In this document: piece by piece, positions 40 to 24,809 of the stretch
How the letters are laid out: every line of letters begins with the position of its first letter
Position numbering within the stretch: the stretch's first letter is position 1
IMG/VR virus record: IMGVR_UViG_3300049138_000126
Coordinates: 1 to 24,809 of that record
Direction: 5' to 3' (one strand)
From: a virus
Lineage: Duplodnaviria > Caudoviricetes
Length of the DNA: 24,809 nt
Program-made: the position numbers and the translations under genes
The notes under the pieces: generated by a model
What the model was told of the DNA's origin: nothing
Databases searched by the model: none
What the model saw: only the letters and a program-made list of their open reading frames with translations

Positions 40-2064
40 GTGACCATCACCTGGAAGACGTTTTGGACCGTCGGAGCCACAGTGCTGGCGTTGAGCATGG
101 CCGCGCTGGCGGTAACCGATGTGCTGTGGACGCCCCTGGCAGTGGTGATCGCCGCCGTCCTGGCAGTGGTGGTCCTCTTGCTCAGCCACGTCATCGTGGA
201 CGCGTGCGAGATGTGGCGCGAAACTGAGGACTGGCAGCGCAGACGGGTCTGGCTGTGGACCAGTGCCGCAGGTGGCGCCTACGCCGCGTGGACGATCACT
301 GCCGCGCTCCTGCCACTGACGTGGCTGCACGGTCTCATCATGGTCGCCGCCTTGGGGATCTTGTCGGTCAGCGTCTACTGGGCGGCCGTCGGCATGGAGT
401 GGCGTCTGCGGTCCGTCGCGCCTCCGCGCCGCCCCGACGCCGAGGACGATGAGGCGCTGCTCGGCCCTTACGAGAAAGTCCTCGCCGCCGCACTGCGCCG
501 CGCCAGCCTCGGCTTCGTGCGGGTCCTGCCCGGCTGTGACCCGCTGCGCAGCAACGCCGGATCGCAGTTTCGTGCGCGCACGCAGTCGAAGGCGCAGCTC
601 GCCCGCGGCGAACGCGCCGGCGCCCAGACCGAGCTGACTCCAAAGCACATGGAGGCGCTGGCGATCGCCCTCGCCGAGATCACCGGCCGTGATGTCGAAT
701 CCGGTTGGGTCCGCTACCGCAAGGAGCCGCAGGCCGGGACCTACTCCATTACCATCACCAACCGAGACGTCATGGCCGAGGTCATCCCCTACGTCGACGA
801 CCCCACGCCGACGAGCATCACCGAGCCCGCCCTAGTCGGTGTCGAGATCGACGGCCGCGAGCACCGGGAGCGCCTCGACCAGCACTCACGGGCCGTCGGC
901 GGATCGACCTCGGGCAAGTCCTCACTGTTCCAATGCGAGCTGGCGCACGCCACCCGATGCGAGGACGCGATCGTGTGGGTCGGCGGTGTCCAGAAACTCT
1001 ACGACCTGGTGGCGGGCTGGGTCGAGCCCTACCACGGGCGGGACATGCGATCGCCGCTGGACTGGATCGCGCACGGCCAGACCGACACGCTCTCCATGAT
1101 GGCCTCGGGCATGTCCGTCGCACGCTGGCGCCAACGCCAGCCCCTGCACCTGCGGAAATGGCGCACGATCCTCCTGTATCTGGATGAGTTCTCGTTCGTC
1201 GCGCAGTCCAGCCAGAAAATCTGGTTCCAAGGGGAGTGGTGGACCGCCTCCCGCCTCGCTTCGGGCTTGCTGCGAGGCGCGGCCAGCGGCAACGTCTTCG
1301 TCCACTTCGGCTCCCAGAGGTCGACCACCGACCACTACGGCGACCAAGGAGGCGACGTCGTCGCCAACATCGGCGTGAACTACGCCTTCCGGTCGAAAGA
1401 CTTCGCTGAAGTCGGCCGCCTCACCAACGACTACAAGCTTCCCGTCCCCAAGTCATCCGGCGAGTGCTACCGGTTCTCCGACGCCGACCCGATCCACCTG
1501 AAAGCCCCCTACATCCAGACCAACGACCCCAGCAAACCCCGGCTGCACAACGGCGTCACCCTCGCCGAGATCGCATGGTCCCGGCGCCACCTCATCCAAG
1601 GAGGGCTCACCGAAGCCGAAGGCCTCACCGCAGCCGGACCCGCCTACGCCGCCCGGCACCAGATCGTCAATGACCGCTTCATGACCTATCTGACCCACGG
1701 CGACGACACGGAGATGCCCGAAGACCCCGACGCACAGGGCGAGGTTTACGACTCCGTCCGCTCCCAGTTGACGGCCCTCGCCGAGCAGCACGGCCTCGAC
1801 CTCTCCCGCAACGACCCCCAACCGTCGACACCGTCGGAGCAGCGCCGCCCCGACGCGATCCTCGCACTCCTCAAACACTCCCGCGCCGAGGAGGGGTTGT
1901 CCGCAGCGCAGATCGCCGCCACGCTTAAGGACGCTGGCGACGCCACGGCCGAGCCTGGCGTCATCGCCCCGACCCTGTCGCGGATGCACAACCAAGGCAA
2001 GATCGCGCGCGTCGCGCCCGGCCGCTACACCGCACTCAGCCACCACGACCACCCGACCACCTGA
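40..2064 (+). CDS. FtsK/SpoIIIE-family membrane ATPase, TraB-like conjugative DNA translocase (plasmid/AICE type)
   Basis: 674 aa. About 4 N-terminal hydrophobic helices, Walker A GGSTSGKS, Walker B ILLYLDE, SQR motif, and a C-terminal winged-helix-like segment (GLSAAQIAATL...TLSRMHNQGKIARVAPGRY). GAGAGGAG RBS before the GTG start. Confidence 0.75.
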   Translation: MTITWKTFWTVGATVLALSMAALAVTDVLWTPLAVVIAAVLAVVVLLLSHVIVDACEMWRETEDWQRRRVWLWTSAAGGAYAAWTITAALLPLTWLHGLIMVAALGILSVSVYWAAVGMEWRLRSVAPPRRPDAEDDEALLGPYEKVLAAALRRASLGFVRVLPGCDPLRSNAGSQFRARTQSKAQLARGERAGAQTELTPKHMEALAIALAEITGRDVESGWVRYRKEPQAGTYSITITNRDVMAEVIPYVDDPTPTSITEPALVGVEIDGREHRERLDQHSRAVGGSTSGKSSLFQCELAHATRCEDAIVWVGGVQKLYDLVAGWVEPYHGRDMRSPLDWIAHGQTDTLSMMASGMSVARWRQRQPLHLRKWRTILLYLDEFSFVAQSSQKIWFQGEWWTASRLASGLLRGAASGNVFVHFGSQRSTTDHYGDQGGDVVANIGVNYAFRSKDFAEVGRLTNDYKLPVPKSSGECYRFSDADPIHLKAPYIQTNDPSKPRLHNGVTLAEIAWSRRHLIQGGLTEAEGLTAAGPAYAARHQIVNDRFMTYLTHGDDTEMPEDPDAQGEVYDSVRSQLTALAEQHGLDLSRNDPQPSTPSEQRRPDAILALLKHSRAEEGLSAAQIAATLKDAGDATAEPGVIAPTLSRMHNQGKIARVAPGRYTALSHHDHPTT

Positions 2065-2084
2065 GACTCCCCGAGAGGACCACG

Positions 2085-2396
2085 ATGTCTCGCCACACCG
2101 AACTCGCCACCCGCGCCGAAGCGCATTTGGCGACCGCCGAGACCGGCGCCGACGACCCGCAGGTGGCTGCGCTGTGCGCCCTGGCCGCGGCGCTCCTCGC
2201 CACCCGACCCGCATGCCTGAGGCGCGCCCCGATTCGCCTGGACCTCGACCAGTACCTCGCTGACATCGAGCACGACACCAGCCCAGCTACGGTCGCGGTC
2301 CGCGCCGTCGTCACCTCCATGCAGGCGGCCGCCGCGGAGCTCGACGGCCTCAACGTCGACGACGGCGGATTCCCTACGGACCTCACCATCTCCTAA
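2085..2396 (+). CDS. Hypothetical Ala-rich helical protein (103 aa)
   Basis: GAGAGGA RBS before ATG, starts 20 nt after the TraB-like stop, no recognisable motif. Confidence 0.65.
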   Translation: MSRHTELATRAEAHLATAETGADDPQVAALCALAAALLATRPACLRRAPIRLDLDQYLADIEHDTSPATVAVRAVVTSMQAAAAELDGLNVDDGGFPTDLTIS

Positions 2397-2402
2397 ACGC
2401 TC

Positions 2403-2431
2403 TTCACACGAATGCGCGCTGGCGTTATCGT
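2403..2431 (+). promoter_or_regulatory. Putative housekeeping-sigma promoter for the HTH gene
   Basis: TTCACA (2403-2408), 17-nt spacer, TATCGT (2426-2431). GGAGAGG RBS follows at 2451-2457. Confidence 0.4.
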
Positions 2432-2463
2432 GATCCCCAACAGCTACATGGAGAGGCCTGCCC

Positions 2464-2835
2464 GTGGAGCGCGACCCGTCGGAGATGACCCCGGCCGAGT
2501 TGCGCTGTCTCCGAGAGTGGATGGGGCTCACCATTCGGGCCATGTCCGCAGCGCTGGGGATCACGTACCAGACGATCACCCGCTGGGAAAACGGTTCATG
2601 GCCGATCTCCAACACGAATGCCGGGGTCTTGTCCGAACTGGTCGCTTACACCAATGCTGTCGTGGATGCGCTCGTCGAGGCCGCGCCCGCCACGATCATC
2701 GTCTACCGCGACGACAAGGCGTTCCGAGCGAACGAGGACACCGGCGGGTGGATGCTGTCGGCAGCGTGGCATCGGATGGTGGCTGTGCGCGCAGCGGAGC
2801 GGATCCCCGGCGCACGCGTCGACTACCGAGATTGA
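2464..2835 (+). CDS. XRE-like HTH protein, Aca2/YdiL (DUF1870)-like
   Basis: N-terminal HTH MTPAELRCLREWMGLTIRAMSAALGITYQTITRWENG, followed by a C-terminal VYRDD...AAWHRMVAVRAA...VDY segment. Size (~120 aa) and layout resemble DUF1870 proteins as I recall them. Confidence 0.6.
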   Translation: MERDPSEMTPAELRCLREWMGLTIRAMSAALGITYQTITRWENGSWPISNTNAGVLSELVAYTNAVVDALVEAAPATIIVYRDDKAFRANEDTGGWMLSAAWHRMVAVRAAERIPGARVDYRD

Positions 2836-2939
2836 CCCGCGGTGCGCCTCCCAGCCACGGCGGCCGCGTGCCGTTAGAGTCGGCCGTGGCCGGCCTCCCT
2901 GATCGTTGGGATCGAGCAGTGGACTCCCGGCCACAGCGA

Positions 2940-2973
2940 AAGGCCCCCGCCTCCCGAAGGAAGCGGGGGCCTT
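2940..2973. terminator. Intrinsic terminator-like hairpin
   Basis: AAGGCCCCCGC (2940-2950) pairs with GCGGGGGCCTT (2963-2973), with an inner TCC-CGAA-GGA. Lies between the HTH gene and the ligase. Confidence 0.65.
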
Positions 2974-2989
2974 CGCGCCGAACCCGTCG

Positions 2990-3004
2990 TACGCTCAGAA
3001 TGTG
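2990..3004 (+). promoter_or_regulatory. Putative -10 box for a leaderless ligase transcript
   Basis: TACGCT (2990-2995), 6 nt, then an in-frame GTG at 3002 with no RBS. This is the usual actinobacterial leaderless geometry. Confidence 0.45.
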
Positions 3005-3859
3005 GACCTACCTGCACCGATGCTGCCCACCGCGGGGCCGCTGCCGACAGGGCCGGGCTGGGCTCACGAATTCAAGTGGGACGGCATCCGGGCTATGTGC
3101 GGATCCCGCGCAGGCAGCCTGCGGATGCAGACCAGGCGCGGAAACGACGTGAGCGCGCAGTTCCCCGAAATCGGCGGCACCGCGGTCGACGCCATCCTCG
3201 ACGGCGAGATCGTGGTGTTCACGGACGAGTCCCCTGATTTCGGTGCGACCCTCCGAAGGCTCAGAGCCAAGCTCCCCAGTGCGCTGGTGGAGACGGTCCC
3301 TGCGACCATGCTGGCCTTCGACCTCCTCCACCTGGACGGGGCGGACCTGCGGGGACGGCCGTACGAGGAGCGGCGCGCAGCACTGGAAGGCCTCACACTC
3401 CCGCCCGGTTGGGTGGTCCCTCCTGCGTTCAGCGACGGGCCCGCGACCCTCGCGGCCAGCATCGAGCACGGCCTGGAGGGCGTCGTCGCCAAGCGCCTGG
3501 TCAGCCGGTATGTCAGCCGGCGCTCCCGCGATTGGATCAAGCACCGGCACCAGGGGGCCGTCGACGCCGTCGTGATCGGCTGGCGTCGGACCTCCTCCGG
3601 CGGGATCTCGATCCTCCTCGCCGAGCCGGGCCCGGGCGGTCTGGTCCACACGGGTAGGTGCACCGCGCCCCGCTCGCTCCTGGAGGTGTTGGAGCCGCTG
3701 GCCGTGACGACGCCACCGGTAGTCGTCGCCGCCGCGCCCATCGGGGTGCAGTGGGTGCGCCCGGAGCTGCGGGTCGAAGTGGTCGCGGGATCGCGGAGTC
3801 CGGGTGGGCGGCTGCGGCATCCGCGTTTCGTCCGGGCCCGGCTCGACCAGCTCGGGTAG
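3002..3859 (+). CDS. ATP-dependent DNA ligase (compact LigC/LigD-ligase-domain type)
   Basis: Motif I HEFKWDGIR, III LDGEIV, IIIa AFDLL, IV EGVVAK, V WIKHR, and an OB-fold tail WVRPELRVEV...GRLRHPRF. Start moved to GTG 3002 because the ORF-track start at 2906 runs through a hairpin. Confidence 0.88.
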   Translation: MDLPAPMLPTAGPLPTGPGWAHEFKWDGIRAMCGSRAGSLRMQTRRGNDVSAQFPEIGGTAVDAILDGEIVVFTDESPDFGATLRRLRAKLPSALVETVPATMLAFDLLHLDGADLRGRPYEERRAALEGLTLPPGWVVPPAFSDGPATLAASIEHGLEGVVAKRLVSRYVSRRSRDWIKHRHQGAVDAVVIGWRRTSSGGISILLAEPGPGGLVHTGRCTAPRSLLEVLEPLAVTTPPVVVAAAPIGVQWVRPELRVEVVAGSRSPGGRLRHPRFVRARLDQLG

Positions 3860-4321: not shown

Positions 4322-4615
4322 GTGTCGGAAAATGTGGTGCTGTTGATCCTCGACCACGAAGCGCCGGGCACCAGGCGTGTCTGGAGGTCCCGCGAGCTGG
4401 GCTACTTCGGCCGCTGGCGTGACTGTGTCGTCGAGGCCGGGCAGCTCGACGACGGACGCTGGTGGGTCCGGCGAATCGCCCACCCCGTGGGCGGCGAGTT
4501 CTGGGCCGAGCTGTACGACAGCGAGCGGGCCGCCCTGGATGCGGCGCGGGAGGCCATGGCTGATATCGAGCCAGCACTCATCGCGGCCGGGTGGCGGCCA
4601 TTCCGAGAGAGCTAG
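4322..4615 (+). CDS. Hypothetical Trp-rich small protein, antisense within the lysis cassette
   Basis: 97-aa ORF that exactly fills the gap between the holin and the collagen-like gene. Protein-like composition. Start uncertain (4322, 4334 or 4337). Confidence 0.6.
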   Translation: MSENVVLLILDHEAPGTRRVWRSRELGYFGRWRDCVVEAGQLDDGRWWVRRIAHPVGGEFWAELYDSERAALDAAREAMADIEPALIAAGWRPFRES

Positions 4616-5310
4616 TCCGGCCCCGTCTCGCCCTGATCGGTGAGGATGCAAGCGATGATGTCGACCGCGCCGCCAGGCGTTACGACAGTCAGGGGACCGG
4701 GAGGCGCTTCGGGCGGACAGATGGGCAGCCCGTACTCGGCGATGTACGCCTCCACCTCCGCGCGAATCTCCTCCCGGGTGGGAGGCCGTCCCGGTTCTCC
4801 CTGTGCGCCATCGGTGCCGTTCGCTCCGTCGGCACCGTCCTCGCCATCCGTCCCGGGAGGCCCGGGCGGGGGCGGGTTCTCGGCCAGGTACCCAGCGAGA
4901 GCTGCATAGATCTGGTCGTTGAGTGCGCCCGGGTTCTCGGCGAGGAGCGCAGCGAACGCCGCAGCGAGCTCGGCCGCCGACAGCTCCCCTTGGTAGGGGT
5001 GCTCGGCGAAGTGCCGCGCGACCGCGGCATCGATAGCCTCCTGGGACGGTCCGGGACCGGGAGGCCCTGCCGGTCCAGGCGGACCGGGCTGCGGCGTGTA
5101 CTCGGGGTCCTCGATGAGGTCGTCGGCAGGCGGGGCGACCGGATCCAGGCCCGCCGCCTCGGCCGCGGACTGCTCATCGCCTAGGGCCTGCGCCAGGACA
5201 TCGATCCGCTCGCCTTGGAGCCGAACACCGACGAGCGCGACCGCGACCGCGGCGAGCACGGCCACGATCGCCACCCAGTGGACGAGAGCCTGGCGTTTAA
5301 CGACGCTCAT
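4612..5310 (-). CDS. Membrane-anchored collagen-like protein of the lysis cassette
   Basis: N-terminal TM, two Gly-X-Y tracts (GPPGPAGPPG; GPPGTDGEDGADGANGTDGAQGEPG), four helical repeats, two C-terminal Cys. ATGA overlap with the upstream gene. Confidence 0.75.
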   Translation of the reverse strand: MSVVKRQALVHWVAIVAVLAAVAVALVGVRLQGERIDVLAQALGDEQSAAEAAGLDPVAPPADDLIEDPEYTPQPGPPGPAGPPGPGPSQEAIDAAVARHFAEHPYQGELSAAELAAAFAALLAENPGALNDQIYAALAGYLAENPPPPGPPGTDGEDGADGANGTDGAQGEPGRPPTREEIRAEVEAYIAEYGLPICPPEAPPGPLTVVTPGGAVDIIACILTDQGETGPD

Positions 5311-14956: not shown

Positions 14957-15399
14957 AGGCTGGAGCCCTGAAGGTTCAGTGCTTGGGCTGCGGCCACCAG
15001 ACGAATCCACTCGCCCTCGGTGAGGACCTCGTCGATCTGGGTCCACTCCTGGTCGGTGGGGACAGGGTCGACGATGCTGGCCCGCACCATCGCCTCATAG
15101 AGGGTGTCCTCGTTGTAGCCGACTTTCCGGTCGTCGACGTGGTCTTTCCTGGGCGGGTGGGCCTTGATCAGCTCCGTCCACTGCTTGCGCGGCAGGGCGC
15201 GGAGGGTGAACCGGATCGTCGCCGCTTCCACTGCTTCGGCGAGCTCGTCGGGGACGGTGGGCTTGCCTCCGAGGGAATCTGCGGCAGTGCGCACCGCTTT
15301 CCGCTCGGCCTCCCGGTAGGCCTCGATCGCCGAAGCGTCGAGGCACACCGGGACGACCCGCTCGGGAAGCTTCGCCTTGTTGAGGGCTTCGATCGCCAT
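14947..15399 (-). CDS. Tail assembly chaperone (gpG-like)
   Basis: 150 aa between tail tube and tape measure. FTLRALPRKQWTELIKAHPP motif, ends at the slippery site. Confidence 0.85.
   Translation of the reverse strand: MAIEALNKAKLPERVVPVCLDASAIEAYREAERKAVRTAADSLGGKPTVPDELAEAVEAATIRFTLRALPRKQWTELIKAHPPRKDHVDDRKVGYNEDTLYEAMVRASIVDPVPTDQEWTQIDEVLTEGEWIRLVAAAQALNLQGSSLPF
14950..14956 (-). other. Programmed -1 ribosomal frameshift slippery heptamer C CCT TTC
   Basis: X XXY YYZ in the correct phase, directly before the chaperone TGA (14947-14949). Confidence 0.8.
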
Positions 15400-16168: not shown

Positions 16169-16387
16169 ATGAACCGACTTGCCCTGGTCTTCCTGCTCGG
16201 TGCGGCACTTGCCGCGGTCGGCGTGGTAGTGCTGATCGCCAGCACGGACTTCGACCCGAACCCGTTCATGGAGAACCAGACGAACGAGACCGGTCAGCTC
16301 GCCGGCGTCGTCGTGGCTTCCGCTGGCGCCGTGATCGTTGCGATCGCCGCCGCCGCCCAGGCGGTCTGCCGGAGCATCCGCAGCTAA
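16169..16387 (+). CDS. Small two-TM membrane protein (72 aa), antisense moron in the tail region
   Basis: GAGAGG RBS before ATG 16169. Two hydrophobic helices joined by an acidic loop. TACAGT -10-like box at 16133-16138. Confidence 0.7.
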   Translation: MNRLALVFLLGAALAAVGVVVLIASTDFDPNPFMENQTNETGQLAGVVVASAGAVIVAIAAAAQAVCRSIRS

Positions 16388-17550: not shown

Positions 17551-17911
17551 CGCGGATCGCAATCGAGAACGCGGACCCCAGGCCCGCGGCCCGGCGGATC
17601 CGACGCGACTCGTCCCGGGACACCTCGAACGACGTGACGGTCTCTGACGCGTACGTCAAGATCTGCGTGTAGTCGTCGATCGTCCCCTGCTGCGACCGGA
17701 GCCCCGACGGGTTCGTGAACAACCGCTTCGCCATGTCCAACGCCACCGAGAAGAACCGGGACTCGTCGGTGGCGTCGAAGCGGGCCTGCCCGACCGCGTT
17801 GATGATCTCCACGCGCACTTTCCGCTCCAGGAGCAGGTACGTGCCCTCGTCGATCGCTGACGGGTCGACCTGAAGGAAGGCGGCCAAGTCGTCCTTGGTG
17901 AACAGCGCCAT
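17537..17911 (-). CDS. Head-tail adaptor/connector protein
   Basis: MALFTKDDLAAFLQ...MAKRLFTNPSGLRSQQGTIDDY, follows the capsid genes. Confidence 0.78.
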   Translation of the reverse strand: MALFTKDDLAAFLQVDPSAIDEGTYLLLERKVRVEIINAVGQARFDATDESRFFSVALDMAKRLFTNPSGLRSQQGTIDDYTQILTYASETVTSFEVSRDESRRIRRAAGLGSAFSIAIRDECQ

Positions 17912-17923
17912 GACCGCCTCCCC

Positions 17924-18271
17924 CTATTCGTCGATGACGCCGGAGTCGGCCAGCGCAGCGATGATGTCGTCCCTGGTGTCGTCGTCCTCTACCTGGACAC
18001 CATGGTTGGCCGCGAACAGCGCCCATGCGTCCCGGCTGGAGCCCTTCCCGGCCCGGGGCGGCTCGACGACGGCATCCGTGGGCTCGTCCTCCTCAACCTG
18101 GGACGACTCGAACTCTGCAGCCGCCTCGACGACCGCGTCCGGGTCTTCCCACACGCCAGGGTTAGTGATGAGCGTCAGCAGACGACCCTCCACTTCGGTG
18201 CCGCGGTTCAGGACCACGGTCCGGCCCGTCTCCGGGTCGTGCACGTGGACCGTCAATGCGAGTTTCGGCAT
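17924..18271 (-). CDS. Hypothetical capsid-associated protein with a C-terminal small helical domain
   Basis: 115 aa; PPRAGKGSSRDAWALFA...TRDDIIAAL; GGAGGA RBS; directly after the major capsid gene. Confidence 0.7.
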   Translation of the reverse strand: MPKLALTVHVHDPETGRTVVLNRGTEVEGRLLTLITNPGVWEDPDAVVEAAAEFESSQVEEDEPTDAVVEPPRAGKGSSRDAWALFAANHGVQVEDDDTRDDIIAALADSGVIDE

Positions 18272-18280
18272 GATGTCCTC

Positions 18281-19315
18281 CTACTGGACGTCGGCGACCA
18301 TGAGCCGGTTCGGGTCGGTCAGGACGGGCATGCCGACCCCGGTGACCTTGGTCCAGGTGCGGACAGGGTCGCCCTCCTTGAGGACGACGCCCACCAGGCC
18401 GGGAGCGTCGGAGAACTCGAGGGACGGGTTCCCCACACCGGCGAGTTCGAGCGCTTCCGCGGTGATGCCCCACGCGGTGTAACCCAGCGTGGACGGGTCC
18501 TGCGGGAGCATGATGAACCGGTCCGCGGGGATCACGCGGGTGTCGACGTCATCGACGTTGACCTGCGTGTCGTACTCCACCAGGGTCGGCAGGCCATAGG
18601 CCTGCAGGACGGTGGTGAGGTTCGCGGGCGTGACGATGGACGGCGTTCCCGCCATGGAGCCCACCAGGGCCCGGATCTCCGCGTTGCGCAGCAGGTTCCC
18701 GATGACCGCACGAGACGTCAAGGCGAACGCAGGGCGCTCACCGTTGAGCGCCACGTACGTGTCGGTCCACGACATGATGTCGGCCAGCGGCGTCGCGGTT
18801 GCGATCGTCGACCAGGGCGTGCCCGGGGCGACGAGGTTCCCGGCAGGGACACCCCAGTCGGCCTCGAGCGTGAGCCCGTTCTCGTCGGTCAGCGTGAACT
18901 TGCCGTCCACGAGGACGTCGCCGCGGGCGAGCTCCATGCGAGCCCGCACCGCGCGGGTGTTGATCTCGGCGTCGTCGAAGATCGCGTCGACTAGCGCCGG
19001 GTTGGCGTCGCCGTTGTTGCGCAGCGCCTCCATCTTGAGGCGCTCGTACTCGCCGACGACGGTCTTCTGACCCAGCGGCGGCAGTTCGACTTCCTTGCGG
19101 GTGTAACCGTCCCGCTGCCCGATCGGAGTCTCCGCGTCGTACGTCCGGAACTTCGCAGTCCGGTTCTTGCGGGTCACCGAGTCGATCCGGGCCGTGATGT
19201 CAGAGAACTGACGGTCGGGAAGGAACTGGTTGAGGATCTGGTTGGCAGGCAGCGGCACTTCGCGCACGAACGCGGTCAGCTCCGCCGGGTCAACGAGATC
19301 AGTAACGATAGGCAT
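18281..19315 (-). CDS. Major capsid protein (lambda gpE-like family)
   Basis: 344 aa; AKFRTYDAETPIG...LPPLGQK...RMELARGDVL...DP...WTK...MPVL; follows scaffold and decoration genes. Confidence 0.9.
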   Translation of the reverse strand: MPIVTDLVDPAELTAFVREVPLPANQILNQFLPDRQFSDITARIDSVTRKNRTAKFRTYDAETPIGQRDGYTRKEVELPPLGQKTVVGEYERLKMEALRNNGDANPALVDAIFDDAEINTRAVRARMELARGDVLVDGKFTLTDENGLTLEADWGVPAGNLVAPGTPWSTIATATPLADIMSWTDTYVALNGERPAFALTSRAVIGNLLRNAEIRALVGSMAGTPSIVTPANLTTVLQAYGLPTLVEYDTQVNVDDVDTRVIPADRFIMLPQDPSTLGYTAWGITAEALELAGVGNPSLEFSDAPGLVGVVLKEGDPVRTWTKVTGVGMPVLTDPNRLMVADVQ

Positions 19316-19330
19316 GTGTCATTCCCTCCC

Positions 19331-19720
19331 TTACCGGACCACGATCCGGCCGGCCATGTCGGTGCCAGCGGCAGCGTCATAACCGGATTCGGCCGGCAGG
19401 CGGTCTTCGATGACCATGCCGTGCTCGAGCAGCGGGGCCCCGACGTCAGCCGTGCCCTTGATCGAGATCGAGTTGAACAGGAACCCCGCAGCGACCTGCT
19501 GACCGGTGGCCAGGGCGTCGTCGTAGGGCCCGTAGAGTCCCGTCGCGGTGATCCGACCGACCACGGTCCCGGAAGGGATGTACCCGTCCGGGTAGTGCGT
19601 GGCCTCGGTGAACGCCGAAACGTCGAGCGTGATGGTGCGCGTGGCCTCGGTGCCATGAGCCGATCCCAGCCAGGACCGGTCCTCAACACCCCAGGTTTCG
19701 CTGCGGACGGAAATGTCCAC
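19331..19720 (-). CDS. Head decoration (capsid stabilising) protein
   Basis: 129 aa; EDRSWLGSAHG...YPDGYIPSG...GLYGPYD...AGFLF...HG; GGAGG RBS. Confidence 0.8.
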   Translation of the reverse strand: MDISVRSETWGVEDRSWLGSAHGTEATRTITLDVSAFTEATHYPDGYIPSGTVVGRITATGLYGPYDDALATGQQVAAGFLFNSISIKGTADVGAPLLEHGMVIEDRLPAESGYDAAAGTDMAGRIVVR

Positions 19721-19759
19721 TGTTACCTCCTAGTGGTATCCCCGCCCGGCACGGGGTCG

Positions 19760-20269
19760 TCATTTACCGGGATCACCGAACCGGGCTCGCGCCCGTGCCT
19801 TACCGGCTTCTTTCGGGTTCTTGACCGCACCAGGGCGGGCGCCCTGGGACGGATCGGGTTTCTGCTGCTGCACGGTGACCCGCTCGCCTTGGAGAGCGAC
19901 CAGCCGTTCAGCCTGTTTCGCGATCGACTCCTCATCGGAGCCGGTCAGGAAAATCTCGGCGTCCTCATCGGAGAGGCCGTGTTTGGTGGCGATCCGGTAC
20001 CGCAGAGCCTCGGTCTCAGCCTTCGCGGCCTTCCGCTCCATCTCAGCGAGCAGCTCGTTCGCCTTCTCGAGGTCCGATTTCCGTTGGTCCTCGATCTCTT
20101 TGAGCCGGTCCGCTGCAGGCTTGGCGGCCTTCAGCTGGTCCTTGAGCTCTTTGATCTGCCGTTCGGCTTCCTTGCGGGCGTCGCGCTCCGCTGTCAGGGC
20201 TTTCAGGCCGGATTCGCCGAGCTGCTCCGGGGGAGCGCCTGCCGGCTCGTTCGGGTCGGGTTCGGACAT
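19760..20269 (-). CDS. Capsid scaffolding protein (169 aa)
   Basis: Coiled-coil, charged; LGESGLKALTAER...PDPSQG; GGAGGA RBS before ATG 20269. Confidence 0.82.
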   Translation of the reverse strand: MSEPDPNEPAGAPPEQLGESGLKALTAERDARKEAERQIKELKDQLKAAKPAADRLKEIEDQRKSDLEKANELLAEMERKAAKAETEALRYRIATKHGLSDEDAEIFLTGSDEESIAKQAERLVALQGERVTVQQQKPDPSQGARPGAVKNPKEAGKARARARFGDPGK

Positions 20270-20327
20270 CGCGTCCTCCATGTCGGGGCCGACATCGCAT
20301 CGGCCGTTCACCGGCCCCGCAGGGCCG
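20264..20327 (-). promoter_or_regulatory. Three-hairpin mRNA leader of the scaffold gene, two loops GCGAU
   Basis: CGGCCC-UGCG-GGGCCG; GGCCGAU-GCGAU-GUCGGCC; GGAC-GCGAU-GUCC, the last containing the AUG. Confidence 0.6.
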
Positions 20328-20339
20328 TGGTCTCAGGGG

Positions 20340-21293
20340 CTAGTAGATGTAGCCGTGGAGCTTCAAGAGCCGAAGCGCGTCGGGGTGGTCCTTGGCGATC
20401 TCGTAGATGCTCTCGGGCATCAGCCGGGTCAACTGCTGCCCGCGGGAGCCCGTCACCCGAAGCTCAGCCGTGGTGAACAAGTCCGCGCCGAACACGTTCC
20501 GGCGGCGCAGACTTCGCCGTTGCCCTTCGGCGGCGCCGGTCATCCCGGCGGCTTTCCGTCGGGCGTTCACGACACGGGCCATGTCGGCTCCGTCGCGGAT
20601 CGCCTGCGCGCCAGCGTTCGTGAATATCCGGTCCTGCTCGGCCTTCGACAGCGAATCGAAGTACGCTTTCGGGTCGGTGATCAAGTCTTCGCGCGGATCC
20701 CCCACCACGGGCACCGAGATGCAGTTGCACTTCGGGTGTCGTTTGAAATCCGTCTTCCACGACCGGTCCGACCCGGCGAGGATGATGCACCTGGAGCACG
20801 ACGGAGGCGTGATGGCCCGCGCGTACCGGGTCACGCGCCTCGTGGTCGAGACGATCGTCGGGGCGATCCGATAGGCGTCCGCGACCTGCGTCGCGGCGAT
20901 CATGCGAGTGTGCGCCTGTCCGAACGCCATCGCCTTCGCGACGGTCGCACCCCGCTTCAGGGCTTCGATCGCCGTGAACGCCGGCGAGAGCAGCAACGTG
21001 TCAAGGGGCCTGCCGTCCGATGCCCATCCTGCGAGCGCGAGCGGCAGGATGTGACCGTCGGTCGGGTTGTCGCCGCCCTGGACGCGGATGGCCTCGTCGA
21101 CGAACGGTGTCGCCTGCCCGGCCGCCTGCGCCTGCGCGGTCACGATCGACCGCAGCAGCAGCGGGACGAGCGCCCTCCACGAGTCGAGGATCCGCGACTG
21201 GTCTACTTGCGCCCACAGGGTGCTGGCGGTCTTCTCGGCCGCGGCGGCGGCTTGGTCAGTTCGTTTCTTGTAGCTCAGCGCGGCCCGCAGCAC
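20340..21293 (-). CDS. MuF-like minor head / capsid maturation protein
   Basis: 317 aa between portal and scaffold; CSRCIILAG...FKRHPKCNC motif; AGGAGG RBS; 38-nt overlap with the portal 3' end. Confidence 0.8.
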   Translation of the reverse strand: MLRAALSYKKRTDQAAAAAEKTASTLWAQVDQSRILDSWRALVPLLLRSIVTAQAQAAGQATPFVDEAIRVQGGDNPTDGHILPLALAGWASDGRPLDTLLLSPAFTAIEALKRGATVAKAMAFGQAHTRMIAATQVADAYRIAPTIVSTTRRVTRYARAITPPSCSRCIILAGSDRSWKTDFKRHPKCNCISVPVVGDPREDLITDPKAYFDSLSKAEQDRIFTNAGAQAIRDGADMARVVNARRKAAGMTGAAEGQRRSLRRRNVFGADLFTTAELRVTGSRGQQLTRLMPESIYEIAKDHPDALRLLKLHGYIY

Positions 21294-22635
21294 TCACGGC
21301 CTCCTGCTGGCGAGCGAGAACAGACAACGGGTCACGCTCAAGCGCTTCCCGCTCCTCGTCCTCCATCAACTCGATCTGCGTGTCGGTGTAGCCAACATCC
21401 AGACGGGTCTGACGGAGCGTCGAGATACCCACTTGGAACTTCTTCACTGAAGCGTCCGCGACCTGCGCGACCGTCGGTGTTGAAGCGTCACGCCACACCG
21501 TCTCCATGCGCCGCAGGTCCGCGCCGTCGACGTCCAGCTTCGCGATTGTGGCCGCGATCCGCATGACCTGCTCCCACGCGCCGCCGAACACCCGCTGCTT
21601 GCGCTCGACCCGCTTCACCAGCTGCGCCTCCGAAGAACGGATCGCATCAGCCGAAGCCGGGTTCGTGCCAGCGAACTGCAAGTAGTGCGGAGGCAGCGCG
21701 AGCATCTGCGAAGCGACCTGCGCCAGCAGTTTGATCGTGTCGTGGAAGTTCGAGAGTGCCGCCTCGGGGAACTGCACGACGTCGGCCTCTTCGCCCTTGC
21801 GTTGGCTTGTCGCCCACTCCCGGCCGGCCACTTTCTCCCACGTGGACAGCGGTTTGCCGTTCTCGTCGACGAAGTCGTCCTCGTTGAGGCCGAACCAGAC
21901 CCTTCGGGGCATCGCGTGGTACTCGCCGGAGATCATCATGTCCGTCGCCATCTTGTTCGCGGCGTCCGCAATCGGGATGACATCGGCGAGTTCGCTCGTA
22001 CCCTGAGGCTTCAACATTCGAGGGCGGTTCACCAACGGCACTACCGAGCAGAACCCACGATTGTGATCGGTCTGGTCCTCCAGGACCCACTTACCGCCCT
22101 CATAGACGTAGAACCGGTCGACGCCCTCGGTGTATAGCGTGGAATGCAGCTGATCGTCGTCGTCGGTCCACCGCTTCAGCCCCCAGATGACCTTCCGAGT
22201 TCGGGGGTCATGGTGGGTGATGACTTGACTGGGGTGCTCCACGGTGATGACCGGCAGTTCCGGCTCGTCCGGATTGGGGCCCACGATCGCATAGGAGCGC
22301 TTCAGGATCAGCGACTCCAGGTGCGCCTGCTGCGACACCTCATCGAGGTCGTTCGCCTGCCAGATGCCCCATAGCCGGTCGTCCGCCTTCGCTTCGCCGG
22401 GGAGTCGGAAACCCTCCACATCAAGGCGGTTCTCGTAGGCGTCCACGCCCATCCGCGGCCAGTTGATCACCAGTTGGGTGATCCGGTCGCCGATTTCCTG
22501 CTGCAACGCCGGGGCCATGTAGCACAGCGGCTGGTCACCCTCGTAGTAGCGGTTCAGTTTCCGCAGTTCGGCATGTTCAGCGGCGAGCTGCCCCGACAGG
22601 TACTCGACCATCTCGACAGGGGTGCGTTCAGGCAC
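21256..22635 (-). CDS. Portal protein (SPP1 gp6-like)
   Basis: 459 aa; RYYEG...NWPRMGVD...RLDVEGF...WQANDLD...SADAIRSSEAQL...WRD; follows terL. Confidence 0.92.
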   Translation of the reverse strand: MPERTPVEMVEYLSGQLAAEHAELRKLNRYYEGDQPLCYMAPALQQEIGDRITQLVINWPRMGVDAYENRLDVEGFRLPGEAKADDRLWGIWQANDLDEVSQQAHLESLILKRSYAIVGPNPDEPELPVITVEHPSQVITHHDPRTRKVIWGLKRWTDDDDQLHSTLYTEGVDRFYVYEGGKWVLEDQTDHNRGFCSVVPLVNRPRMLKPQGTSELADVIPIADAANKMATDMMISGEYHAMPRRVWFGLNEDDFVDENGKPLSTWEKVAGREWATSQRKGEEADVVQFPEAALSNFHDTIKLLAQVASQMLALPPHYLQFAGTNPASADAIRSSEAQLVKRVERKQRVFGGAWEQVMRIAATIAKLDVDGADLRRMETVWRDASTPTVAQVADASVKKFQVGISTLRQTRLDVGYTDTQIELMEDEEREALERDPLSVLARQQEAVSAAGRAELQETN

Positions 22636-22638
22636 GAC

Positions 22639-24264
22639 TTACCCCCGTCTCACGATCATCTTCGAGCTTCGTCGCTGCCAATTGCCCCCAGCGAGGGCGT
22701 CGAGTCGTGCCTGCCAGCTCAAACAGCCGGCCATGGCGAGGTCGATGTACTTCTCCGAGTCGGGCCGTTCCTTGTAAATCGTCCACAGCGGGGTGTCGTC
22801 GTCGTCCAGGACCTTGACACTGCTGCGGCGAGCGTTAGCGATATGGCGAGCCAGGTCGGAGTCACCGGAGTGCGACAACTGACCAGACGTCATTGCGGTC
22901 CTATAGGCCCGCATGGCTTGGCCGATTTGCTTCTGCCGGTTCGTGTACCACTCCATGACGCGCTTCTGGCCGTACTTCCCGGCCCACTTCGCGACGTTGT
23001 CCTCGAACCGTGGCGGATCGGCGTAGAGCAGCACGACCCGCCAACGCTGCATCGCTTCTTCCAGCGCGCCGTTGACCTGGTCGTCGGTGACTTCCCAGTC
23101 CACTTCCTTCGGGAGGTCTTCGGGTTTCTCCCACAGCGCGATCGGCCATTGGTGGCCCGTCTCGATGTGTGTGGCCACGAATCCGCAAGCGTCTCGCCAG
23201 CGGGCGCCGTCGAAACCGAGCACAATCGGCTCCTTGTCGGCGATCACCAGGTCGGCGCGGGTCAACTCGCTCCAGCGGACCGGATCGAACGCCTGCCGGG
23301 AGCTCGCAACCCACCGGTTCAGCCAGACCCGCTCGAAGTACGCCTGGTCGGTGTCGTCCTGGTGGTACAGCGACATGATCGAGTCGATGTCGGACCATTT
23401 CGCGACCGCTGGACCCGATGCCTCAACGATCGCCGCCCGCAGACCCTCATCGGTCTCCAAGTCATGCGACGGGCTCGCCTCTCGGTGGAAGTAGAACAAC
23501 TGCGGGTCCCGCGCCTTGCCGGCGTGGACCTTCTCCGCGTAGTCCTTCTCCGTCTCCGCCACCGACCGTTCCCCAGGAACACCCGCGGTCGTCGTTGACA
23601 GGCTCCATGGGTCCGCGATCGGACGCTTCGGGATGTTCTGCAGCATCGTCTGATGCGCGTCAATCAACTTCGGGAGCGTCATCCGGTGCGGCTCATCGAA
23701 ATGCTGAAACGTCGTTCTCGCGCCGTCGCGGGAGTTCGGGGCCGCCGCCAAAGCGACTGCCTTCCCGTCGCCGTTCCAGCGAGTGATCCGCTCCAACGTC
23801 GGGTCAAACAAGTCCGCGTCCGTGGACTCCTCGCACATCAGCTTGAGCGCCGCGTACGCGAGCTCCTCAGTCTGCTCCTCCGTGTACGCCACCATGGGGA
23901 TGTACGGGTCCCGCACCGGCCTGCCGACAGGGTTCCCGTTGGCATCGAACCCGTCGCAGCGCACCGGTCCCTCAGGGTGCAGTTCGGCGAAAGCGATCCA
24001 CGCGGCCTTCTCGGTCTTCGCCGTCCCCTTGCGAAGCGAGATGCACACTCGCTTGAACCGGCGCCGCCCCGCCTTCGGATGCCCCTGCGGGTACACCTCG
24101 TAGGCCCGATAGATCAACGCCCGCGTCTCATCGTCGATCACCGCGGGCTCGCCACGGAGGTCACCGGGCCCGAATGTGCATCGTTCCTCGATCAGGTCGC
24201 AGATCTGCGGCCCGAGAGTGGACCAGGGGGTTTCATCGAGCGGAGGGACGATCAGCCCCGTCAC
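22639..24264 (-). CDS. terL: Terminase large subunit
   Basis: 541 aa; Walker A-like LRKGTAKT, Walker B FQHFDE, TTAG motif, nuclease LGFDG...D and YIDLAMA. Confidence 0.93.
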   Translation of the reverse strand: MTGLIVPPLDETPWSTLGPQICDLIEERCTFGPGDLRGEPAVIDDETRALIYRAYEVYPQGHPKAGRRRFKRVCISLRKGTAKTEKAAWIAFAELHPEGPVRCDGFDANGNPVGRPVRDPYIPMVAYTEEQTEELAYAALKLMCEESTDADLFDPTLERITRWNGDGKAVALAAAPNSRDGARTTFQHFDEPHRMTLPKLIDAHQTMLQNIPKRPIADPWSLSTTTAGVPGERSVAETEKDYAEKVHAGKARDPQLFYFHREASPSHDLETDEGLRAAIVEASGPAVAKWSDIDSIMSLYHQDDTDQAYFERVWLNRWVASSRQAFDPVRWSELTRADLVIADKEPIVLGFDGARWRDACGFVATHIETGHQWPIALWEKPEDLPKEVDWEVTDDQVNGALEEAMQRWRVVLLYADPPRFEDNVAKWAGKYGQKRVMEWYTNRQKQIGQAMRAYRTAMTSGQLSHSGDSDLARHIANARRSSVKVLDDDDTPLWTIYKERPDSEKYIDLAMAGCLSWQARLDALAGGNWQRRSSKMIVRRG

Positions 24265-24719
24265 TTCACCGCCTGAAGCAGACTCCGCGGATCGGCAGCC
24301 GGCTCCGAAGACTCTCGAGGCTTCTCCGCAGCGGTCTTCCGCTTCCGGGTGTTCTCCTCCGCCGCCTCGCCGCGGTCAATCTCCCACTGGAGACGCCGGC
24401 GGTCCAACGGAGTGATCCCGTACAACTGCCCTTGCATGCGGATCTCCGCCGACAACTTCACCCGCAGGTTCGCGTTGTCCGCAGTCCAATAGTCATCCAC
24501 CAGGATCGCCAGCCGGATCAGGCCGTGCTTGTCGGAGTCGTCGTACTCGGGCGCCATCGGAGACGCCCAGATGTCCTTCCACCACTCCAACGTCTGCGAA
24601 TGCCAGTCCTTACCCTCAGGGAGCGAAGGCGCCTCGACGTCATGCACCAGCGTCAGGGTCGCCCTGGTCGTGGTTTGGTTCCGTCGAGCCGGATTGCGTT
24701 TCGGTTGAGGCCCAGGCAT
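24261..24719 (-). CDS. terS: Terminase small subunit
   Basis: 152 aa; MPGPQPK...RRN...WWKDIWASP...EIRMQGQLYGITPLDRRRLQW; 4-nt overlap with terL; AGGAGG RBS. Confidence 0.85.
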   Translation of the reverse strand: MPGPQPKRNPARRNQTTTRATLTLVHDVEAPSLPEGKDWHSQTLEWWKDIWASPMAPEYDDSDKHGLIRLAILVDDYWTADNANLRVKLSAEIRMQGQLYGITPLDRRRLQWEIDRGEAAEENTRKRKTAAEKPRESSEPAADPRSLLQAVK

Positions 24720-24779
24720 CGCGCCCTCCTCGAAGTGAGAGCGGATCGCCCGCTCAACTGATGGTCACAGTGAGTGACC
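24714..24779 (-). promoter_or_regulatory. Three-hairpin mRNA leader of terS, two loops GCGAU
   Basis: GGUCAC-UCACU-GUGACC; GAGCGG-GCGAU-CCGCUC; GGGC-GCGAU-GCCU, the last containing the AUG. Confidence 0.6.
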
Positions 24780-24809
24780 GAAAACTTGGGGAACCCGTAC
24801 GCGGAGAAA

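Follow-up and report, generated by a model that had tools for sequence, protein, structure and literature searches.

Tandem pentaloop hairpins over the starts of actinophage scaffold and terminase genes, with a scaffold segment as their candidate reader

The late arm of the actinophage-like genome considered here lies on the minus strand of a 24,809-nt stretch of viral DNA (Duplodnaviria; Caudoviricetes; IMG/VR virus record IMGVR_UViG_3300049138_000126, positions 1 to 24,809; hereafter the window) and carries terS, terL, portal, MuF-like, scaffold, decoration, capsid, neck, tail and lysin genes. Two of these—terS, for the terminase small subunit, and the gene for the head scaffolding protein—are each preceded by a pair of hairpins with the loop GCGAU (Table 1). 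A preliminary description had reported these four hairpins, and we find all of them on the minus strand where it placed them, with paired stems and loop-to-loop spacings of 27 nt (terS) and 26 nt (scaffold). As it also stated, the second hairpin of each pair is built from the end of the ribosome-binding site (RBS) and the start codon: the AUG (24719 for terS, 20269 for scaffold) begins in the loop, which holds its first two bases, while its G is the first base of the 3' arm. A third, 6-bp hairpin does lie further upstream in both leaders (loops TCACT and TGCG); because these loops differ, we rejected both as members of the same family. In loci L001–L003, the first scaffold hairpin reads GGCCGA-GCGAU-UCGGCC, with the loop kept and one pair lost.

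Table 1. Positions in the window of the two genes, the scaffold segment and the hairpins
Feature	Positions	Strand	Basis or remark
terS, terminase small subunit, 152 aa	24261..24719	-	PF25673 E 5e-29; phrog_226, phrog_1897
Head scaffolding protein, 169 aa, proposed reader	19760..20269	-	phrog_1793 E 2e-26
Scaffold residues L17-R32 (LGESGLKALTAERDAR), its type goes with the loop class; Arg/Lys position at R29	20174..20221	-	covariation
terS leader hairpin 1, GAGCGG-GCGAU-CCGCUC	24739..24755	-	identical in L001-L003
terS leader hairpin 2, GGGC-GCGAU-GCCU; 5' arm overlaps RBS end, AUG starts in loop	24714..24726	-	
Scaffold leader hairpin 1, GGCCGAU-GCGAU-GUCGGCC	20287..20305	-	
Scaffold leader hairpin 2, GGAC-GCGAU-GUCC, over RBS end and AUG	20264..20276	-	
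Upstream 6-bp hairpin before terS, GGUCAC-UCACU-GUGACC	24763..24779	-	different loop, outside family
Upstream 6-bp hairpin before scaffold, CGGCCC-UGCG-GGGCCG	20312..20327	-	different loop; sequence differs in close relatives
Extra 4-bp hairpin inside terS (Ala-Thr codons), CAGG-GCGAC-CCTG	24654..24666	-	possible third site

In the window, GCGAT by itself occurs at chance level (97 copies vs 84 ± 9 in shuffled sequence). Enclosed by a stem of at least 4 bp it is enriched (8 vs a shuffle mean of 1.9), and tandem pairs of such hairpins number two, vs none in 500 dinucleotide shuffles. If any shared 5-mer loop is allowed, the terS and scaffold pairs are the window's only tandem pairs, at a mean of 0.04 per shuffle (100 shuffles). 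Single GCGAT-loop hairpins also lie on the minus strand away from start codons, at 16228-16245, 15320-15336, 4470-4484 and 23425-23437. The motif had been called unfamiliar, and Rfam agrees: no covariance model, GP20-a and GP20-b included, matched at the gathering score, with two sub-threshold, unrelated matches in the window and one in 20 related loci.

About half of a collection of viral contigs was then scanned by sequence only, for GCGAT followed after a gap by GGAGGNCGCGATG, with pairing not required. Among 108 distinct matches, both stems reached at least 4 bp in 13, the first only in 1, the second only in 6 and neither in 88 (Fisher p 1.7e-11). Twelve of the 13 double-stem matches precede TerS (4) or scaffold (8), two of the 12 being near-copies of the window, while TerS or scaffold appeared in none of the 65 other open reading frames (ORFs) of the scan (ORFs of at least 40 aa; 30 matches with shorter ORFs were left out). 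In the thirteenth, L048 (121-950, minus strand), the gene behind the tandem GCGAT hairpins encodes 261 aa ending in a C2H2-like zinc finger, and its product is neither TerS nor scaffold.

We collected relatives via TerS and via scaffold, merging near-duplicates and leaving out leaders with less than 60 nt upstream together with three mis-started scaffolds. A family hairpin was defined by a stem of at least 4 bp and a loop G[A/C/T]NA[T/G/C], a pattern set after seeing the data, and was found in 79 of 138 terS leaders, of which 40 have at least two, and in 86 of 108 scaffold leaders, of which 47 do, vs 7 and 10 in the respective reverse complements and 9.0 and 5.4 in shuffles. Counted by protein cluster, leaders with the hairpin number 111/151 for scaffold and 76/133 for TerS, against 12/171 for TerL, 13/169 for portal, 13/133 for MuF and 2/82 for HNH; the element thus keeps to scaffold and terS leaders and is rare ahead of the other four. 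Its general form is a G-N-N-A-N pentaloop, usually closed by a C-G pair, on freely covarying stems. The shared GCGAU loop is thus accurate for the window's four hairpins, but family-wide it is only one among several loop classes, the commonest loops being GCGAT, GCAAG, GCGAC, GCGAG, GCAAC, GACAT and GTCAT. Loop position 5 is A in only 3/131 and 3/139 G-N-N-A-N hairpins, and no 6-nt loop was enriched in the terS and scaffold leaders examined.

Conservation and covariation, to which the preliminary description had looked for confirmation, were both evident in homologous leaders, and every computational test by which it had proposed to be refuted came out in its favour. At sites selected by GC[A/G]AN alone, with no regard to pairing, flank pairing lies far above column shuffles and uses all six pair types; at upstream scaffold sites, for instance, the second pair is formed in 153 of 188 cases vs 76.8 in column shuffles (maximum 96). 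When 31 double-hairpin leaders were aligned, 97% of cells were paired and double changes numbered 73 vs 20.6, figures that are inflated because the rows were hand-picked. The median loop-to-loop spacing is 27–29 nt, and the last hairpin contains the AUG or reaches into the RBS in 55/79 terS and 66/86 scaffold leaders. The sense strand has 124 tandem sites against 12 for the antisense strand; variable arms, a fixed asymmetric loop and this strand bias together indicate a single-stranded structure on the mRNA.

With starts chosen by the RBS alone, hairpins stand in both leaders at 48 loci, before terS only at 19, before scaffold only at 12 and before neither at 18 (p 0.006); a statement that the terS site is almost never alone was dropped, since the first table (65, 2, 16, 14) had used scaffold starts picked in part by their number of hairpins. 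Where TerS occurs without this scaffold family, the hairpin is missing in 9 of 11 loci, although these are few and loosely annotated. At three loci (L220, 6890-7137; L253, 4220-4440; L265, 5178-5390), tandem GCGAT hairpins also stand before a 58–68 aa ORF of unknown family that immediately precedes scaffold, and this ORF would therefore be a third target gene there. We conclude that the hairpins are a conserved element over the start of scaffold and terS genes, and regard its reality and conservation as close to certain.

Loop type tends to agree between the two leaders of a locus. In 52 of 65 loci with hairpins in both leaders the type is the same in the two, vs 17.8 in 5000 permutations (maximum 29), and it follows the N-terminal segment of the scaffold protein: LGxxGxxALxxER goes with GCGA, the corresponding segment ending in MK with GCAA, and GFP...YWK with G[A/C/U]CA, while phages with the Che9d-type ITSQ segment have another RNA motif. 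Within LGxxGxxALxx[E/M][R/K], the Arg/Lys column (R-type and K-type loci) predicts GCGA vs GCAA at 0.94 in leave-one-out assessment of 51 loci, whereas the best rival columns reach 0.76 in TerS (of 141), 0.78 in TerL (of 516) and 0.82 in portal (of 431); the best MuF and HNH columns reach 0.78 and 0.76, with scaffold at 0.96–0.97 on the same loci. The 80 loci labelled GCGA or GCAA comprise 63 Arg with GCGA and 17 Lys with GCAA. When scaffold starts are picked by RBS alone, ER-type leaders divide into 61 with GCGA and 10 with none, and MK-type leaders into 5 with GCAA, 1 with GCTA and 10 with none. The third loop base of the terS leader, compared with the scaffold residue, gave 20 Arg-G and 15 Lys-A combinations and none discordant, and on an IQ-TREE TerL tree all 7 of 7 independent pairs agree for this comparison (p 0.016). 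The extra site inside terS behaves similarly, a GCGAN hairpin lying in that part of the gene at 9/27 R-type and 0/17 K-type loci, with GCAAC there in one K-type locus. The preliminary description had guessed at free scaffold as the binding protein, and this comparative evidence, in which loop class tracks one segment and one position of the scaffold, lends support to that guess.

Fresh loci, whose scaffold starts were picked without regard to hairpins, followed the same rule. K-type loci had GCAA in 49/50 scaffold leaders and in 23/27 terS leaders (1 GCGA, 3 none), and metagenomic R-type scaffold leaders had GCGA in 8/13 (GTCA in 1, none in 4). The GFPxxTP...QxxYWK class has G[A/C/T/G]CA in 33/48 scaffold and 19/25 terS leaders. 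Scaffolds of the ITSQ/FTQ type lack the pentaloop in 26/27 cases; before ITSQ-type scaffolds, a TACGCC...stem-GCGGTYAA-stem motif was found instead in 33 hand-picked loci, 12 of which also carry it before a phrog_4479 TerS, against a background of 39 matches in 1.6 Mb. This motif is itself uncatalogued and occurs in Che9d (L029, 401-430 and 4273-4302), ODay (L030) and 31 further loci.

The terS leaders of the Nonomuraea prophages L165 and L200 are nearly identical, with both loops reading GCAA in L165 and GCGA in L200, and their TerS, TerL, portal and capsid proteins are 77–82% identical; a switch of this kind also distinguishes the Streptomyces loci L175 and L179. The scaffolds of Che9d and the window share 57% identity over residues 50–123, and Che9d differs in its N-terminal segment and in the RNA motif of both leaders. 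In L288, TerS is 76% identical to that of Che9d, yet the scaffold is of the ER type and tandem GCGAT hairpins precede terS. Both loop classes are found with five unrelated capsid families.

These comparisons bear directly on whether TerS, a nucleic-acid-binding protein, might itself bind the hairpins—either with the RNA imitating its DNA site or with the hairpins present as cruciforms in DNA close to the end of the genome—and repress its own gene and scaffold. Such a role would suit a terS leader that in many relatives lies no more than some 100 nt from where the contig ends. However, loop class fits the TerS tree worst of those compared, with 16 parsimony changes vs 11 on the portal, 12 on the scaffold and 13 on the TerL tree; the TerS proteins of L173 and L200 are 91% identical with different loops, just as the similar TerS proteins of L288 and Che9d go with unrelated motifs; and scaffold leaders keep the element beside other TerS families that lack it (phrog_1459, 0/5 terS leaders). 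Variable arms around a fixed asymmetric loop are, moreover, the reverse of a double-stranded DNA operator, and the strong sense-strand bias of tandem sites points the same way. We consider a TerS reader very improbable.

A host RNA-binding protein (ANTAR, CsrA-like or other) appears no more probable. CsrA/RsmA targets have GGA in hairpin loops, and the preliminary description had drawn an analogy to CsrA-type repressors that bind paired loops; the paired-loop architecture holds, but GGA is absent from the commonest loops here, so the likeness is architectural only. Closer in setting are the targets of actinobacterial ANTAR domains, which are dual stem-loops, often over the RBS or AUG, read by a host protein through hexaloops with A1 and G4 (PMC8164766); two stem-loops over the RBS and start codon are common to both systems, whereas the loops here have five bases with G1 and A4. 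Phages of one host genus also differ among themselves: among Mycobacterium phages ZoeJ has GCGAN, KristaRAM GAAAC/GTAAC and Che9d GCGGTCAA, as the Nonomuraea prophages L165 and L200 differ in GCAAN and GCGAN. We give still less weight to the idea that nothing reads the hairpins and that intrinsically stable loops statically tune initiation or mRNA stability. GCGA and GCAA are indeed GNRA sequences, and the upstream hairpins fold well unaided; this idea nonetheless leaves unexplained both the joint switch of two distant leaders with a scaffold residue and the non-GNRA GACAU class.

Cultured phages extend the picture for scaffold leaders. ZoeJ, MissDaisy, Cleo and Seahorse, with ER-type segments, have GCGAN at scaffold, and Isolde (GTGAT) and GAL1 (GACAT/GACAG) likewise have the loops that their segments predict; in none of these six was the element present in the annotated or presumed terS leader examined (0/6). 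Halo, Apricot, Ascela and Lucky10 have other scaffold segments and no such scaffold hairpin. Inspected by eye, the scaffold leaders of Halo (L373), Ascela (L378) and Apricot (L380), which lack a pentaloop, contain other apparent inverted repeats. In Isolde (L375), a tRNA-Trp is annotated at 4859-4930 between protease and scaffold, just upstream of the GTGAT hairpin.

An AlphaFold2 model of the scaffold protein (mean predicted local distance difference test score, pLDDT, of 85) has a long helix over residues 19–63, with the segment at its start, and L17, G21 and A24 are invariant in 85 scaffold sequences. No solved relative was found, a PDB sequence search (E up to 1) and Foldseek being uninformative, and an ESM Atlas search with residues 10–60 gave only leads below 0.9. 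We propose that the hairpins would form on the late mRNA and that the helix starting at LGxxGxxAL would read the loop, with G at the third loop base preferred by Arg, and A by Lys, at residue 29; arginine's preference for guanine is textbook chemistry and fits the Arg-to-G link. A scaffold dimer or oligomer could bridge the loops some 27–29 nt apart, stabilise the weak hairpin over the RBS and AUG and block ribosome loading. While coat protein is available, proheads would sequester scaffold; excess scaffold, or scaffold released at packaging, would then repress its own gene, and free scaffold would also repress terS, tying terminase supply to head assembly. As the start of terL overlaps the stop of terS (22639-24264 vs 24261-24719), terL would probably be repressed as well.

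Several observations weigh against this proposal, in part or as a whole. Some 40% of terS leaders (59/138) lack the element. The contrast between G-U and A-C pairs is weak evidence for RNA, decisive only at the closing pair of scaffold hairpins (12 vs 0), since internal pairs gave 14 vs 15 and 12 vs 8. Exceptions to the loop rule include 3 of 23 hairpin-bearing terS leaders of the ER type with other loops, one K-type terS leader with GCGAG, one R-type scaffold leader with GTCAC, and a GCAAG loop in the third hairpin of L003 (R-type). The fresh K-type loci are relatives of the training K loci. Agreement of independent pairs is complete on other trees (portal 5/5, scaffold C-terminal 4/4, TerS 3/3), in numbers too few for significance. 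Acidic residues occur in the segment, which is no more than mildly basic. Because the scaffold leader lies 50–200 nt from the segment codons, linkage could explain the scaffold-leader half of the association; the terS leader lies 4.5 kb away, so the terS half alone escapes linkage.

Linkage, or protein contact, would also be the reason for scaffold covariation if another head-module protein (portal, capsid or a small gene beyond the fetched DNA) were the one that reads the loops. Whole-protein tree parsimony barely separates scaffold, portal and TerL, the portal tree needing the fewest changes; some capsid columns reach 0.85–0.95 within single capsid families (13–19 loci), which counts against scaffold as reader; and regulatory and early genes lie mostly outside the analysed stretches. 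On the other hand, the scaffold Arg/Lys column has no near equal in portal, MuF, HNH or adaptor, capsid families are unrelated among loci with the same loop, and each of four different N-terminal segments of scaffold is accompanied by an RNA motif of its own. We therefore view a different head-module reader as unlikely, and hold that free scaffold quite probably reads the hairpins, a judgement drawn from comparative sequence evidence.

Across the family, folding predictions without a partner give the terS hairpins median probabilities of 0.87 and 0.80, and the median for the RBS/AUG hairpin in scaffold leaders is 0.46; the window's scaffold hairpins reach 0.95 and 0.60 in ViennaRNA. The window's terS leader also speaks against the proposal: ViennaRNA prefers a cross-paired fold (-40.1 vs -32.6 kcal/mol) that gives the GCGAU hairpins a probability of 0.00 and likewise buries the RBS and AUG, so that protein binding there could relieve repression instead of adding to it. 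Scaffold might accordingly bind with an outcome other than repression—refolding and activation of the leader, antitermination in the late operon, or tethering of mRNA to nascent proheads. Loop binding would undo the stronger RBS/AUG-hiding fold of the window's terS leader, and extra sites lie in the early coding region of scaffold (GCGA in 29/72 R-type, GCAA in 7/18 K-type), which would be in keeping with such an outcome. The position of the last hairpin over the AUG or RBS in most hairpin-bearing leaders and the unaided folding predicted for family terS hairpins argue otherwise, and a scan of the late strand (17800-24809), weak at high GC, found no terminator-like site. A non-repressive role for scaffold thus seems unlikely, if slightly less so than a different head-module reader; given scaffold as reader, repression is very likely.

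On balance, we favour, with reasonable though not strong confidence, free scaffold as an autogenous translational repressor that would act through hairpin operators and whose control would extend to terminase. We lean only slightly towards the more general proposition that scaffolds carry an exchangeable N-terminal RNA-reading module, with Arg reading GCGA, Lys reading GCAA and other modules reading other hairpins; that the resulting two-gene regulon couples terminase synthesis to prohead assembly; and that orphan motifs before scaffolds, including GP20-a and GP20-b, are operators for their own scaffold.

Elsewhere in the window, the plus strand at 40-3859, past the lysis genes, carries FtsK-like, helix-turn-helix (2464-2835) and ATP-dependent DNA ligase genes. 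The label of phrog_226 is "minor tail protein", repeated in many RefSeq records, while the protein at 24261-24719 is actually the terminase small subunit (PF25673). The minus strand has a CGTACG palindrome at 24796-24801, some 80 nt ahead of the terS start codon, and YGTACGR occurs within 130 nt upstream of terS in 90/138 relatives, near where many contigs end; it is possibly a cos-proximal packaging signal or a promoter element.

How the amounts of scaffold, coat and packaging motor are matched from one long late transcript is poorly understood; apart from autoregulation of the P22 scaffold, which goes back to 1985, no case is known to us. Our finding points to a structure as the target, to a 16-residue segment as its candidate reader and to a putative single-residue specificity switch. 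If correct, it would imply feedback from head assembly to DNA packaging, suggest a reader for many orphan phage leader RNAs, and offer small orthogonal peptide-hairpin pairs for translational control with a large natural library. Neither the motif nor the scaffold-loop code was found described in the literature searched, with most subscription papers, the PMC5737381 supplement and the alignments of the 10,006 candidates in PMC10690425 outside its coverage; a term search of PMC8632094 and PMC6316719 gave nothing relevant.

Autogenous scaffold control is already known, here with a proposed extension to terminase, and the new part is the scaffold segment-loop code. The closest system in its working is P22 gp8: P22 scaffold controls its own synthesis post-transcriptionally with its N-terminus implicated (10.1101/2022.12.13.520362), and it leaves and is recycled at packaging (PMC3185693). 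A cis element at the start of scaffold translation is found here in 86/108 leaders. Here, in sequence comparison, N-terminal segment type and one residue track the loop. We found no sequence relation between gp8 and the scaffold here (PDB, Foldseek), and a multi-copy pentaloop site, a second target in terS and a residue-to-loop code were not found described for P22 in the sources consulted. A second parallel is offered by GP20-a (RF02991), GP20-b (RF03003) and the candidate structured RNAs (csRNAs) that Fremin et al. 2023 (PMC10690425) place ahead of Phage_GP20 and DUF4355 genes. PF06810 and PF14265 are scaffold families, so that these too are predicted structured RNAs directly upstream of scaffold genes; the text consulted calls GP20 a gene whose function is unknown and names no reader or terS copy, and the element here has no Rfam match. 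The cluster K start-associated sequence (SAS), a 13-bp GGGATAGGAGCCC, precedes only non-structural right-arm genes, with little support for hairpins in the extended SAS (PMC3203893). Repeats next to start codons are common to the two, and AGGAGCCC closes both the GACAU class and the SAS consensus; SAS is absent from the window's two leaders, and the element here precedes structural genes. Lambda boxB, finally, is a GNRNA pentaloop with A at position 5, bound by the arginine-rich helix of N in antitermination (PMC12027372). It shares with our element a G-initiated pentaloop on a short hairpin and, as we infer for scaffold, reading by one helix, whereas here the fixed A is the fourth loop base, the fifth being U, G or C, and the hairpins lie over the RBS or AUG.

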